64,000 nucleotides of DNA from Alphaproteobacteria bacterium (GTDB lineage: Bacteria > Pseudomonadota > Alphaproteobacteria > JAUXUR01), in the NCBI GenBank assembly GCA_030696155.1, contig JAUYSY010000029.1:71985-135984 (forward strand), read 5' to 3'. Below, in pieces: positions 47,983 to 51,479 of the stretch; the first letter of the stretch is position 1, and every line of letters starts with the position of its first letter. The notes below the pieces were generated by a model. The model was not told the origin of the DNA and made no database searches. It worked only from the letters and a program-made list of their open reading frames with translations. A program made the position numbers and the translations under genes.

Positions 47983-49131
47983 TTATTTTATATAAAGATC
48001 TTTTATGTTGCAGAAAGGTAAGCCTGTTTTTAGTGATGCTATACCCTCATCACCGATTTGCCCGTGCGAGATTTCAAGATATGTAAGATTTTGCATTTTA
48101 GCAATTTGAATAGCGCCTTCATTAGCGATAAGGTTGTGATTTATAAAAAGACGTTGTAAATGTCGCAATTGAGCAATGTGTGTAGCAACTTCGTTATCAA
48201 TGCGGTTAAAAGCAATAGCAAGAGAACGAAGTTTTTTAAAATTATTTAATTCTTTGATAATATTTATTTTTTCAGCAATAGGCATAGAATACAACGCACC
48301 ATTTAAGTATATAGTCTTAACATTAGGAAATTTTTGAGAAAGCAAGATGATTTCTTCTGGTGTTGGTGCAACTGAAAATATAATTTTATATACATCAAGT
48401 CTATATTCTAATTCTTGCTGTTGCTTTTGTAAAAATTCGCGCATCCAACTATCTAAACAAAAAAACGGGTTTTCAAATGAATCTGTATTTATTATCCTGA
48501 TATGCTGAAGATTTAGAGAGTTAGCCATAGAGATAATGTCATCTGTTGTTTCAAGATTCTGGAGATTTTTAAAATGAGTTAGATTTTTGATAATGTCGGT
48601 ATAATTACACTCGTTATTATCCATATCGTTAAGCTTTAGCACATAAGATAAATCTATGTTTTCAACATTAGGAAATTTTTGAGAAAGTAAGATCATTTCG
48701 TCAGGTGTTGGTCTAATCATAAATTTTAGTGATTTTATATTATACAAAGGCACTAATTCATGATCGGGATCAATTAAAAATTGACGTGTTGCACTATCAA
48801 AATAAGCCGTGCTTTTTTCATTTAAATTGAATATCCCACTCAGTCTATTGCTTAAATCAATTTCTCCTTTGTCATTTGCATCAGCAGGAATCAGTGGCGT
48901 TACAGTGTGCAAGGCCATAAGTTGTTCATTTTTTGGTAAAAATGAGACAATATGTTTGCATAATTCTCCTGAGATTAGAAAGCCTTCAATAGGCACAAGA
49001 CTTGGTGCCGAGACATAATCATTTTGACTTGACGAAGTCGTACAGGTGCTTTCATCGGCAATGTCATTACCATTTGCAAAAGCATGAATTGTTGGTGTTA
49101 ACAATAAAAATAGAACGTTCAGTGTTTTTTT
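47983..49131 (-). CDS. Secreted LRR protein with an F-box-like segment
   Basis: Signal peptide MKKTLNVLFLLLTPTIHAFA; GELCKHIVSFLP; duplicated PTP.E.ILLSQKFPNV; RI-type LRRs (NxIxxEG). Confidence 0.7.
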   Translation of the reverse strand, partial: KKTLNVLFLLLTPTIHAFANGNDIADESTCTTSSSQNDYVSAPSLVPIEGFLISGELCKHIVSFLPKNEQLMALHTVTPLIPADANDKGEIDLSNRLSGIFNLNEKSTAYFDSATRQFLIDPDHELVPLYNIKSLKFMIRPTPDEMILLSQKFPNVENIDLSYVLKLNDMDNNECNYTDIIKNLTHFKNLQNLETTDDIISMANSLNLQHIRIINTDSFENPFFCLDSWMREFLQKQQQELEYRLDVYKIIFSVAPTPEEIILLSQKFPNVKTIYLNGALYSMPIAEKINIIKELNNFKKLRSLAIAFNRIDNEVATHIAQLRHLQRLFINHNLIANEGAIQIAKMQNLTYLEISHGQIGDEGIASLKTGLPFCNIKDLYIK

Positions 49132-49421
49132 CATTTCGAATTCTTTCAATTAAATTAAAACTTACAAAAAAATCTGTAGCATATTTTTTAAAATACTACA
49201 ATAAATAAATAATAAAAAAGTTATTTATTAATATTTTTTTGTATAAAAGTATGAATATTCAAATAAATTTAATTCATTTGATGACCAAATTTTAAAAGTT
49301 GCACAAAAATTTGAAAATCTTAGCTTTTGTATGTACATTGAATAAAACTTTTTTGCATTAAATTTATTTTATACGACAGATTTAAATAATTTTTAAGCTT
49401 GTTCAATATGTTGTCATATTA

Positions 49422-49471
49422 GACAAAAGATGTGCCTGAAATGGGGGATCTTGGTCACAGGTGGGTGTTTT
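49422..49471 (+). repeat. 50-bp direct repeat, copy 2
   Basis: 49/50 identical to 47788-47837. Confidence 0.9.
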
Positions 49472-49561
49472 TTGTGGTTTGTAAAAAAATGTTGAAAAAG
49501 TAGTAATGATTATGGTATATTTGATAATTAAAATATTATTTATTAATTGGGATGTAATTAT

Positions 49562-50416
49562 ATGAAGATATACGCCAAACTATTTATTGCTTTGATGCTT
49601 TCTGTTTTTATTGCAACATCATCAAATGCTACATATACACAAGAGCAAGTTGATGAAATTGTGAGTATAAAAGCAAAAGAAACATTTGACTTAATTAATT
49701 TAAATTGGAGCTACTTACAAAATCTGAATGATTTAAATGCAGAATCTGCATTTTGGACCCCCACATTAGCAAAACCATCAATAAATTCCGCAATTTATCC
49801 AACACTAAAATTAAATGACACACAATGTGATATAATCGAAGCATTTCGTGATTTACCAACAAAACCAGCACATTTAGAATGTACGATTGTTGTAAAACTT
49901 GTTAAGAATCTATGCCTTTTAGAATTATTAGGTGAAGACAAATTCAATGAATGGTTGCAGATTTTACCTAAAACAACTGGGCGTCATCCTTCTGACCCTT
50001 TATTCTTTCATGTGATACCTGATCGTTTTTTTAGTGTTAAAAATGAAGGTTCTGGTTTTTACTATGTAGCAAACCACTCAGGTTATACAACAATGAAACC
50101 AAAAGGGATTGGCTGCGGATATAATGGTTTTCTCTTTCAAGATCAACAATTCATTTCTTTTGATCCGGTTCATTTCAAAGAAACAAAATCTATAGAAGAA
50201 ACGCAACATATTCTTTTTGAGGATATAATGTCTGATGAAAATGTTGAAAAAATTAATCTACATCAAGCACTTAAAACTCAATATGTGGGTGAGGATGGCT
50301 TTGCTAATTTTCGTCTAAATTGTTTAGAGACAAAACAACAATCACAGCCAATTTGGAAATTTAGCGCAGATAAAATAAATGCTTTTATGGATAGTGGTAT
50401 TATTCCAAAAAATTGA
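49562..50416 (+). CDS. Secreted Tgl-like (transglutaminase/papain-fold) protein, paralog 1
   Basis: Signal peptide; EAFRD..HLECT..LLGEDKFN resembles Bacillus Tgl AIRD..FECAT..IGEDKFN (from recall). Confidence 0.6.
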   Translation: MKIYAKLFIALMLSVFIATSSNATYTQEQVDEIVSIKAKETFDLINLNWSYLQNLNDLNAESAFWTPTLAKPSINSAIYPTLKLNDTQCDIIEAFRDLPTKPAHLECTIVVKLVKNLCLLELLGEDKFNEWLQILPKTTGRHPSDPLFFHVIPDRFFSVKNEGSGFYYVANHSGYTTMKPKGIGCGYNGFLFQDQQFISFDPVHFKETKSIEETQHILFEDIMSDENVEKINLHQALKTQYVGEDGFANFRLNCLETKQQSQPIWKFSADKINAFMDSGIIPKN

Positions 50417-50471
50417 TAATTTTTATACAATTAATTAAAATTATACTACAACATCAAAAGGAATTAATATT

Positions 50472-51326
50472 ATGAAAAACTACGTTAAATTGTTTTGTGC
50501 ATCAATATTTGCATTTTTTTTCACAGTAACAATAATAAATGCAACGCTCAATCAACATAAAGCAGATGAAATTGTTAGCCAAAAAGTCAAAGAACTATTT
50601 TGTTTGATTAATAAAAATTGGACATATGCTGAATATGACAATGAATGTTATACTGAATCAGAATATTGGAAACCTATCATTGTTGATGGCCCTGATTTTA
50701 AATATGTAACTTTAAAATTGATTAACCATAGATGTAATGTTATTGAAGCGCTTCGCGATTTACCAACTAAAAAAGCACGTTTAGAATGCGCGACAGTCTT
50801 TAGCCTTGTAAAATCTTTGTGTCTTTTAGAATTAATGGGAGAGAATAATTTTAACATATGGTTAAAAGATTTAAGTAAATATCAATATAAGCCTTCTGAA
50901 GATGGTTTTTTTAATTCAATACAAGGTGTTTTTTATGCTGAAAAACAAGCTGAAGAAAGCGGTTTCTATTATATACATAATCATCCTTCTTACAATAAAC
51001 TGAAACCTTCTGGTAATGCTGCTGGATATAATGGATTTCTTTTTCCTGATCAAACTTTTATCACTTTTGATCCCCACCATTTTATAGAACCTAAATCTAT
51101 AGAAGATACCCAACGCATTCTTTTTAATGATTTATTATCTGATGAACATGTATACAATCATGATCTGCATACCATATTTAAAATTCAATATGGTAGTGAT
51201 AATGGCTTTAATAAAATCCTAGAAACTTGCTTGGCCAAAAAACAAGCATCAGAGAAACCTTTTAATTTTGATGCAAATAGAATAAATAGATATCTTAAAA
51301 AAGGTATTACTGTCCTATTTGAATAG
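50472..51326 (+). CDS. Secreted Tgl-like protein, paralog 2
   Basis: Signal peptide; EALRD..RLECAT..LMGENNFN; colinear with paralog 1. Confidence 0.6.
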   Translation: MKNYVKLFCASIFAFFFTVTIINATLNQHKADEIVSQKVKELFCLINKNWTYAEYDNECYTESEYWKPIIVDGPDFKYVTLKLINHRCNVIEALRDLPTKKARLECATVFSLVKSLCLLELMGENNFNIWLKDLSKYQYKPSEDGFFNSIQGVFYAEKQAEESGFYYIHNHPSYNKLKPSGNAAGYNGFLFPDQTFITFDPHHFIEPKSIEDTQRILFNDLLSDEHVYNHDLHTIFKIQYGSDNGFNKILETCLAKKQASEKPFNFDANRINRYLKKGITVLFE

Positions 51327-51372
51327 AAAACTAATTAAAGTTTCAATAAATCCATCCATTTACCTCCTTCAC

Positions 51373-51408
51373 AATAGATCCCGCGGGTTTTGCCGCGGGA
51401 AGTAGGAG
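51373..51408. repeat. Family R half element
   Basis: tagatcccgcgggttttgccgcgggaagtaggag single hairpin. Confidence 0.65.
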
Positions 51409-51479
51409 AGTTTTGTATTGTTTTTTGCAACAGCATCAAATGCCACTTTAACTCAAGAATAAGTAAATAATATTATTAA

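Follow-up and report, generated by a model that had tools for sequence, protein, structure and literature searches.

The spore-coat protein Tgl is the smallest, "minimal" transglutaminase (PMC6490927). Genes resembling it have been described from spore formers of the Firmicutes only (PMC3533761), and a 2023 survey of papain-like enzymes gives the TGL family (PF20085) with the spore-coat example only (PMC10318531). In Tgl, the substitutions C116A and E115A abolish activity and E187A keeps ~60% of it, with E115 substituting for E187. Y171 and N188 line the front of the tunnel, through which the glutamine substrate enters, and at the back, where the lysine substrate enters, the lining is formed by F69, W184 and H200; H200 makes a lysine-side substrate contact and is not essential to catalysis itself, yet the H200A enzyme is inactive (PMC6490927). 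Full-text literature searches found no report of relatives of Tgl from Proteobacteria or from symbionts. Here, we report that a window of 64,000 nucleotides from an Alphaproteobacteria bacterium (assembly GCA_030696155.1, contig JAUYSY010000029.1, positions 71,985 to 135,984) contains two tandem genes, paralog A and paralog B, whose products are genuine, though distant, homologues of Tgl that belong to a separate family and are not Tgl orthologs. The two genes are located as follows, with all coordinates given as positions in the window:

49562..50416, + strand: paralog A, Tgl-like exported cysteine enzyme (predicted), 284 aa, key residues E106-C107, N171-H172, Y187-N188 and F200
50472..51326, + strand: paralog B, Tgl-like exported cysteine enzyme (predicted), 284 aa, key residues E105-C106, N170-H171, Y186-N187 and F199

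The two proteins are 49% identical over 283 residues (BLASTP, E 3e-88), a paralogy far beyond chance that identifies the pair as a tandem duplication, and A scores 277.8 bits against the profile of the wider family. Both carry an export signal at the N-terminus, consisting of a charged or basic start, a hydrophobic core of 11-17 residues and an (S/I)-N-A cleavage-like motif, and neither N-terminus has a lipobox Cys at the right place. From the sequence and a crude hydrophobicity test, expressed as a Kyte-Doolittle (KD) value, we read these segments as type I signal peptides:

49562..49630, + strand: signal-peptide-like N-terminus of A, residues 1-23, MKIYAKLFIALMLSVFIATSSNA followed by T; KD 3.0 over 11 residues
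50472..50543, + strand: signal-peptide-like N-terminus of B, residues 1-24, MKNYVKLFCASIFAFFFTVTIINA followed by T; KD 2.66

Homology to Tgl emerges when the family is compared as a whole. The Pfam TGL model matches B at E 0.025 (14.3 bits, gathering threshold 23.7 bits) and does not match A; an NCBIfam scan of A and B and a single-sequence phmmer search of the PDB returned no match, and a six-sequence profile reaches B. subtilis Tgl (4P8I) at E 0.15 only. However, a profile made from a 79-sequence family alignment, from which all column counts out of 79 given below are taken, finds 4P8I in the PDB at E 3.5e-5 (hmmsearch), and the ungapped stretch in this match spans WRGENVILLGEDKYFAHG. When the same alignment is compared by hhalign with the aligned B. 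subtilis and Geobacillus Tgl sequences, the probability is 97% and E is 8e-11 over 137 columns, pairing residues 60-217 of B with residues 76-214 of Tgl at ~20% identity. Pfam TGL is matched at E<=0.1 by 20 of the 79 members, with a best value of 4.1e-6; in addition to these, the longer relative P0101 scores 23.3 bits against the 23.7-bit cut-off, falling 0.4 bits short. Sequence comparison therefore places the likeness to Tgl above chance at the level of profiles only, and for single sequences it is marginal.

The predicted structure points the same way. An AlphaFold2 model of B calculated from the 79-sequence alignment has a predicted local distance difference test (pLDDT) score of 92.9 and a predicted template modeling score (pTM) of 0.87; a model from the 6-sequence alignment (pLDDT 47.6) was unusable and was discarded. 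The signal-peptide-like segment of B is modeled as a separate helix (residues 2-17) at lower confidence, and Cys106 is placed at a helix N-terminus, which is the arrangement found in papain-like enzymes. Foldseek comparison of the model with the PDB ranks Geobacillus stearothermophilus Tgl (7C9J) first with a probability of 0.99, the sole credible match, all others among the best 50 of 203 matches having probabilities <0.1. The original prediction for this locus had described tandem, signal-peptide-bearing, remote homologues of Tgl that share two motif blocks, and had pointed to profile and structure comparison with Tgl as the way to check it. BLASTP, the profile match, hhalign and Foldseek all bear this out, and both motif blocks are found in A and B. 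The Tgl motifs given there are correct: the full Tgl sequence used for comparison is identical to 4P8I in all columns over residues 1-245.

What A and B share with Tgl is the single-domain NlpC/P60-type core, over which Tgl 76 to 214 is aligned, with the common motifs YW...L.L, A(I/L)RD, (F/L)-E-C, GE(D/N)(K/N)FN, Y..N, G.N and (Y/F)... The putative active-site segments are:

49874..49882, + strand: L-E-C codons of A, predicted nucleophile Cys107 and preceding Glu106, aligned with Tgl F114-E115-C116
50781..50789, + strand: L-E-C codons of B, predicted nucleophile Cys106 and preceding Glu105, at the N-terminus of helix 106-122
50979..51035, + strand: segment of B from N170-H171 to G185-Y186-N187-G188, with invariant or nearly invariant Asn170 and Tyr174, clade-specific His171, Tyr at the Tgl E187 position and Asn at that of Tgl N188
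50072-50128, + strand: equivalent segment of A
51057..51074, + strand: F-I-T-F-D-P of B, with Phe199 at the Tgl His200 position (ungapped hidden Markov model (HMM) alignment to Tgl 184-213, and hhalign)
50150-50167, + strand: equivalent segment of A

Using B numbering, Cys106 (Tgl C116) is present in 78/79 family members, and the preceding position 105 (Tgl E115) is Glu or Asp in 78/79; one protein, P0077, lacks the Glu-Cys pair and carries QR instead. On the glutamine side, N187 (Tgl N188) is found in 76 of the 79 and Y167 (Tgl Y171) in 53, while N170 (Tgl N174) and Y174 are each kept in 77. By contrast, the position of Tgl E187 is Tyr186 in B and differs from member to member (H 23, E 14, Y 11, S 10, Q 6, F 5), Tgl H200 is replaced by a Phe (F199, 73/79), and Tgl W184 is not kept but aligns with the A/S/G residues that precede G185; Tgl F69 falls outside the aligned region. 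The family therefore keeps the nucleophile, the essential neighboring acid and the glutamine side, whereas the dispensable E187 position is free and the lysine side has been rebuilt. The original prediction had the nucleophile Cys kept and the Tgl Glu and His positions replaced. Both points hold: GYN aligns with the GEN of Tgl and (S/T)FD with its AHG in the profile alignment and in hhalign. Its description of a "remodeled active site" was right for these two positions but overlooked the Glu before the Cys. Given that E115 is essential in Tgl and that Glu or Asp is kept at this position in the family, the minimal catalytic dyad would be intact and "remodeled" fits the periphery only.

The same prediction had noted a His in an NH motif shared by both paralogs. 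This His171 is present in 9/79 members and is I, V or L elsewhere, and we therefore rejected it as a family-wide catalytic residue. Nevertheless, it covaries perfectly with the Tyr at the Tgl E187 position: all nine proteins with His171 have Tyr186, and nine of the 11 with Tyr186 have His171, which gives the prediction partial support on other grounds. In a crude neighbor-joining tree built without columns 171 and 186, the His171-Tyr186 pair occurs at three separate places, namely the clade of the window proteins, P0047 and P0082. P0047 nests among members with His at 186, its sister P0050 having Ile171 with Tyr186, and P0082 groups with proteins that have Glu there. This distribution suggests two alternative places for a His close to the Cys: the canonical strand position (186), or a relocated one directly following the strand before it (171), where Tyr186 would buttress it.

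To assess the extent of the family, 1.84 billion cluster representatives were searched exhaustively with an HMM. Of these, 112 proteins reach E<=1e-3 and 68 reach E<=1e-10, which makes ~110 clusters at 50% identity, all of them unnamed and from metagenomes. A word-indexed homologue search was shallow, returning 5 close relatives with a single sequence and 7 with the 79-sequence profile, and a scan of GTDB species representatives with patterns from the alignment of close relatives found no family member; the two deeper alignments have no run of columns sufficiently conserved for a scan of this kind. One apparent member of 3597 aa (P0016) is a false positive: its E of 4e-25 is summed from 19 matches to cadherin-like repeats of ~6 bits each, and it does not match the deeper family profile. 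The 79 aligned sequences are only ~20% identical overall. By the same crude hydrophobicity test, 79 of the 100 N-terminally complete representatives have a signal-peptide-like N-terminus and several more nearly pass, while about a dozen have no signal peptide. No recognizable fused domains were found in the longer members. The nine family loci that were fetched and measured have a GC content of 30-42%, and several contain typical bacterial genes. Consistent with the original claim of an undescribed family, neither Pfam nor NCBIfam has a model for it, and the only source name is "hypothetical protein."

The family is thus a distinct, unannotated sister of the known Tgl. It differs from Tgl in its export signal, as Tgl is produced inside the sporulating mother cell; in its taxonomic range, which covers alphaproteobacterial contigs and contigs of other uncultured organisms and not spore formers; and in the rearranged periphery of the active site. 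In addition, the N-terminal module of A and B is unlike that of Tgl and contains the motif I-N-x-N-W-x-Y, and ~80 residues form a helical extension at the C-terminus. A sister family of ~110 clusters changes the picture of how Tgl-like proteins are distributed and where Tgl originated. The members examined are on bacterial contigs, but giant-virus members are possible. When the model of B was compared with models of viral proteins, Foldseek matched uncharacterized proteins of two giant viruses that infect amoebae, A0A3G4ZPB9 of Terrestrivirus and A0A5K0U7G4 of Yasminevirus, with a probability of 1.00 (E 7e-5 and 1.5e-3). These are much longer, multidomain proteins of 546 and 894 aa, likened to B by fold alone (template modeling (TM) score ~0.5 normalized to the query, 12% identity). 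The matches suggest that a Tgl-like fold may circulate among amoeba-associated viruses as well as bacteria.

Among described enzymes of host manipulation, the Cif/CHBP deamidases and the Legionella transglutaminase MavC are papain-fold cysteine enzymes that deamidate or transamidate host glutamines, and a functional analogy with A and B is possible. They differ in having Cys-His-Gln/Asp triads, delivery by type III or type IV systems and no Sec signals, and neither Cif, MavC, CNF nor PMT was among the PDB sequence matches or the best 50 of 203 Foldseek PDB matches. The reading of A and B that we favor, to which we assign about an even chance, is that they are Sec-exported, single-domain cysteine enzymes that share an ancestor with Tgl, built on an NlpC/P60-type papain-like core, and that act on glutamine, with host proteins as the likeliest targets and the surface of the symbiont second. 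Following removal of the signal peptide, a protein-bound glutamine would bind the conserved glutamine side, formed in B by Tyr167 and Asn187 (Tgl Tyr171 and Asn188). The adjacent Glu105 would activate Cys106, probably assisted in the window clade by His171 packed against Tyr186. Cys106 would then attack the side-chain amide to give a gamma-glutamyl thioester, to be resolved either by an amine, yielding a cross-link or amine incorporation, or by water, yielding deamidation. A and B would act outside the bacterial cytoplasm. Because the lysine side of Tgl (Trp184, His200) is replaced by small residues and Phe199, the acceptor half-reaction and the substrates would be expected to differ from those of Tgl.

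Host proteins are favored as targets from context, that is, because of the organism, which would parasitize host nucleotides, and because of the neighboring genes. The NuoL protein of the window is <=64% identical to its best matches among GTDB species representatives, all of which are alphaproteobacterial, and places the organism only as a deep alphaproteobacterium; named proteins in the same 90% clusters as window proteins are labeled "MAG: Alphaproteobacteria bacterium" (MAG, metagenome-assembled genome). The bacterium is probably intracellular, as the TLC/Npt nucleotide transporter encoded 4 kb from the Tgl-like pair indicates an energy-parasitic intracellular lifestyle. Immediately flanking the pair are genes for a leucine-rich repeat (LRR) protein and a kinase-like protein, given here after the transporter:

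55546-57057, + strand: TLC/Npt1-Npt2 ATP/ADP translocase (Pfam E 5.5e-163), which marks obligately intracellular energy parasites
47983..49149, - strand: LRR protein, 388 aa, divergent from A, with a signal-peptide-like N-terminus (Pfam LRR_6 1.3e-9)
51480..52451, - strand: kinase-like protein, 323 aa, convergent with B, with a signal-peptide-like N-terminus and the core HGDLHWEN...IDNE

The kinase-like protein falls well short of the cut-offs of the NCBIfam Bud32 models, which it matches at E 6.5e-9, and has weak matches to Pfam ABC1/APH and to LepB_N; a PDB sequence search with it returned no match. It may be an exported atypical kinase. The four-gene stretch from the LRR gene through A and B to the kinase-like gene (47983-52451, 4.5 kb) has a GC content of 29.4%, compared with 35.1% for the window and 39.3% for the adjacent nuo genes.

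Comparison with a close relative (GCA_030680745.1, locus L001), in which the flanks are 90-95% identical to the window, shows that the array is variable. L001 carries syntenic LRR and kinase-like genes and an ortholog of A at the same position (83% amino acid identity), but B is absent. The same A and B tandem is present at a further locus, L005, from another read set. The segment that is present in one genome and missing from the other contains B, a hairpin and the remnant of a further copy:

50436..51509: presence/absence segment of ~1.07 kb (B, hairpin and relic), absent from L001 (at L001 2706-2719; blastn)
51379..51400: possible terminator, a G+C-rich hairpin with 8 pairs in the spacer from B to the kinase-like gene
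51409..51510, + strand: relic of the 5' end of a third copy, SFVLFFATASNATLTQE-stop-VNNIINHKKKEVFNS, with an in-frame stop, truncated, overlapping the 3' end of the kinase-like gene

The relic corresponds to the end of the signal peptide and the first ~20 mature residues, encoding ...FFATASNATLTQE-stop-VNNIINHKKKEVF..., and is 77% identical to the 5' part of the A ortholog of L001 (blastn). The rates of nonsynonymous change (dN) and its ratio to synonymous change (dN/dS) were determined for eight genes between the window and L001. Paralog A is the highest of the eight by both measures (dN 0.094, dN/dS 0.45), with values of 0.054 and 0.22 for the kinase-like gene and 0.022 and 0.28 for the LRR gene. 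The TLC gene is highly constrained (dN 0.003, dN/dS 0.03), a thioesterase gene has a dN of 0.005 and a dN/dS of 0.05, and three pseudopilin-like genes have a dN/dS of 0.16-0.23. Given these ratios and the turnover of copies, the Tgl-like array is functional but fast-evolving, changing by duplication and loss. Such behavior is common in genes of host interaction and unusual for housekeeping enzymes of the envelope.

The exported LRR and kinase-like neighbors, the top dN/dS, the presence or absence of B and the fold matches in giant viruses are all hints that make host targeting plausible. The original prediction had proposed that the enzymes may modify host proteins or cross-link the symbiont surface, and of this the gene context is suggestive. 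Several points weigh against our reading. Both A and B score under the Pfam TGL gathering threshold. The TM-scores of the model against 7C9J are moderate, at 0.45 normalized to the query and 0.58 to the target, and 4P8I, the best sequence-profile match, is not among the best 50 of the 203 Foldseek PDB matches. At the three canonical NlpC/P60-Tgl positions, A and B have Cys, Tyr and Phe, and a Glu-Cys dyad alone would be an unusual catalytic apparatus, given that in Tgl it was shown to suffice only where E187 or E115 was at hand. Across ten family loci there is no conserved neighbor or partner gene, and no secretion system that crosses the outer membrane was identified in the window, only the three pseudopilin-like genes. 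The further suggestion that the family is one of host-directed glutamine deamidase or transglutaminase effectors of Tgl stock, drawn from a gene pool common to amoeba endosymbionts and amoeba-infecting giant viruses, is one that we put forward tentatively and consider on balance doubtful. In such a family only the Glu-Cys pair would be fixed and the general base would be mobile, being a strand His, a Glu or Asp, or a relocated His with Tyr.

Alternatively, A and B could cross-link outer-surface or envelope proteins of the symbiont itself, for example in a resistant transmissive stage. The sole demonstrated biology of the closest known relatives is of this kind, as Tgl hardens the spore coat, and the export signals and conserved glutamine-side residues would fit such a role. 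However, Tgl's lysine-side residues are replaced, the pair has no linked gene for a candidate substrate, and B is dispensable in the close relative L001. In addition, dN/dS is high compared with both the adjacent pseudopilin-like envelope genes and housekeeping genes. We regard self-directed cross-linking as improbable.

A second alternative is that A and B are envelope hydrolases in the periplasm of the symbiont, where a Sec signal in a diderm would deliver them by default, and that they cut either the stem peptides of peptidoglycan or lipoprotein links. Tgl has an NlpC/P60 core resembling that of cell-wall endopeptidases (PMC6490927; PMC10318531). According to the Tgl literature, the NlpC/P60 endopeptidases and amidases (PF00877), which are exported, belong to the same superfamily, in which the Cys starts a helix and the beta-meander after it supplies the second and third catalytic positions. 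Furthermore, one distant family member adjoins ftsQAZ/mur genes and lies near M23 and YkuD genes. Against this, Tgl alone is matched: no NlpC/P60 hydrolase was found by Pfam in the 79 members, among the PDB-profile matches or among the Foldseek matches listed. The Cys-His-(His/Asn/Gln/Glu) triad of these hydrolases is absent from A and B, in which the canonical His is a Tyr and the third residue a Phe, and Pfam finds no peptidoglycan-binding or other wall-binding domains in either protein. Moreover, the neighborhoods of family members are not conserved, and rapid evolution with copy-number variation is unlike housekeeping wall enzymes. A wall hydrolase is therefore unlikely.

Third, the Cys could act on peptide or isopeptide bonds and not on glutamine side chains, making A and B papain-like proteases, deubiquitinases or other acyl-hydrolase effectors. 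The papain-like fold supports many chemistries (PMC10318531), the E187 equivalent is a His in 23/79 members, forming a classical Cys-His pair, and the altered acceptor side would fit hydrolysis. Nevertheless, the conserved residues N187 and Y167 are those that line the glutamine entrance in Tgl, and no protease or deubiquitinase structure is a match, SseL standing at rank 48 with a probability of 0.06 among the best 50 of 203 Foldseek matches. This reading is, in our judgment, quite unlikely. Finally, a catalytically dead binding protein on a Tgl scaffold would accommodate the absence of E187 and H200 from A and B and of the Glu-Cys pair from P0077, but is very improbable given that both the Cys and the preceding acid are kept in 78/79 sequences that are ~20% identical, that His171 covaries with Tyr186, and that dN/dS is <1.

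The family constitutes a natural mutagenesis series that bears on which residues a minimal transglutaminase needs: the Glu-Cys pair, the Asn and the Tyr stay fixed, any of H, E, D, S, Q, Y and F can stand at the E187 position, and H200 has become Phe. Should host proteins be the targets, the scaffolds known for glutamine-modifying effectors would grow by one. Its members might also serve as small, self-active enzymes for protein ligation.

Several other features of the window accompany the pair. Shine-Dalgarno-like motifs lie 9 nt upstream of both ATG codons, GGGA for A and AAGGA for B, and a consensus scan marks two promoter-like sites that are no commoner than in shuffled sequence and serve as a pointer only. 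The scan assigned the hairpin at 51379..51400 to the - strand, making it a candidate terminator of the kinase-like gene. The remaining features are:

49492..49521, + strand: promoter-like site upstream of A, TTGAAA-18-TATATT with TG
50413-50441, + strand: second promoter-like site, in the spacer between A and B
25660-26907, - strand: second LRR protein, with strong LRR_8 and LRR_14 matches
53345-55321, - strand: three consecutive pseudopilin-like genes with N-terminal methylation motifs and lysine- and glutamate-rich tails

None of the type II secretion system core genes GspD, GspE and GspF was recognized among the ~40 open reading frames of the window that were scanned, some others being outside the scan, and a link of the Tgl-like pair to the pseudopilin-like genes is therefore unsupported. 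Elsewhere in the family, two members without a signal peptide, P0070 (L090 8001-8882) and P0086, have weakly F-box-like N-termini (Pfam E ~0.03, failing a cut-off of 0.01), which we take as no more than a further hint of host targeting, and P0070 is adjoined by a RAP-domain gene (L090 9274-10782). The gene at L003 3916-5559, which adjoins another member, P0003, has a weak match to Gly_transf_sug, a DXD glycosyltransferase domain also present in some bacterial effectors.

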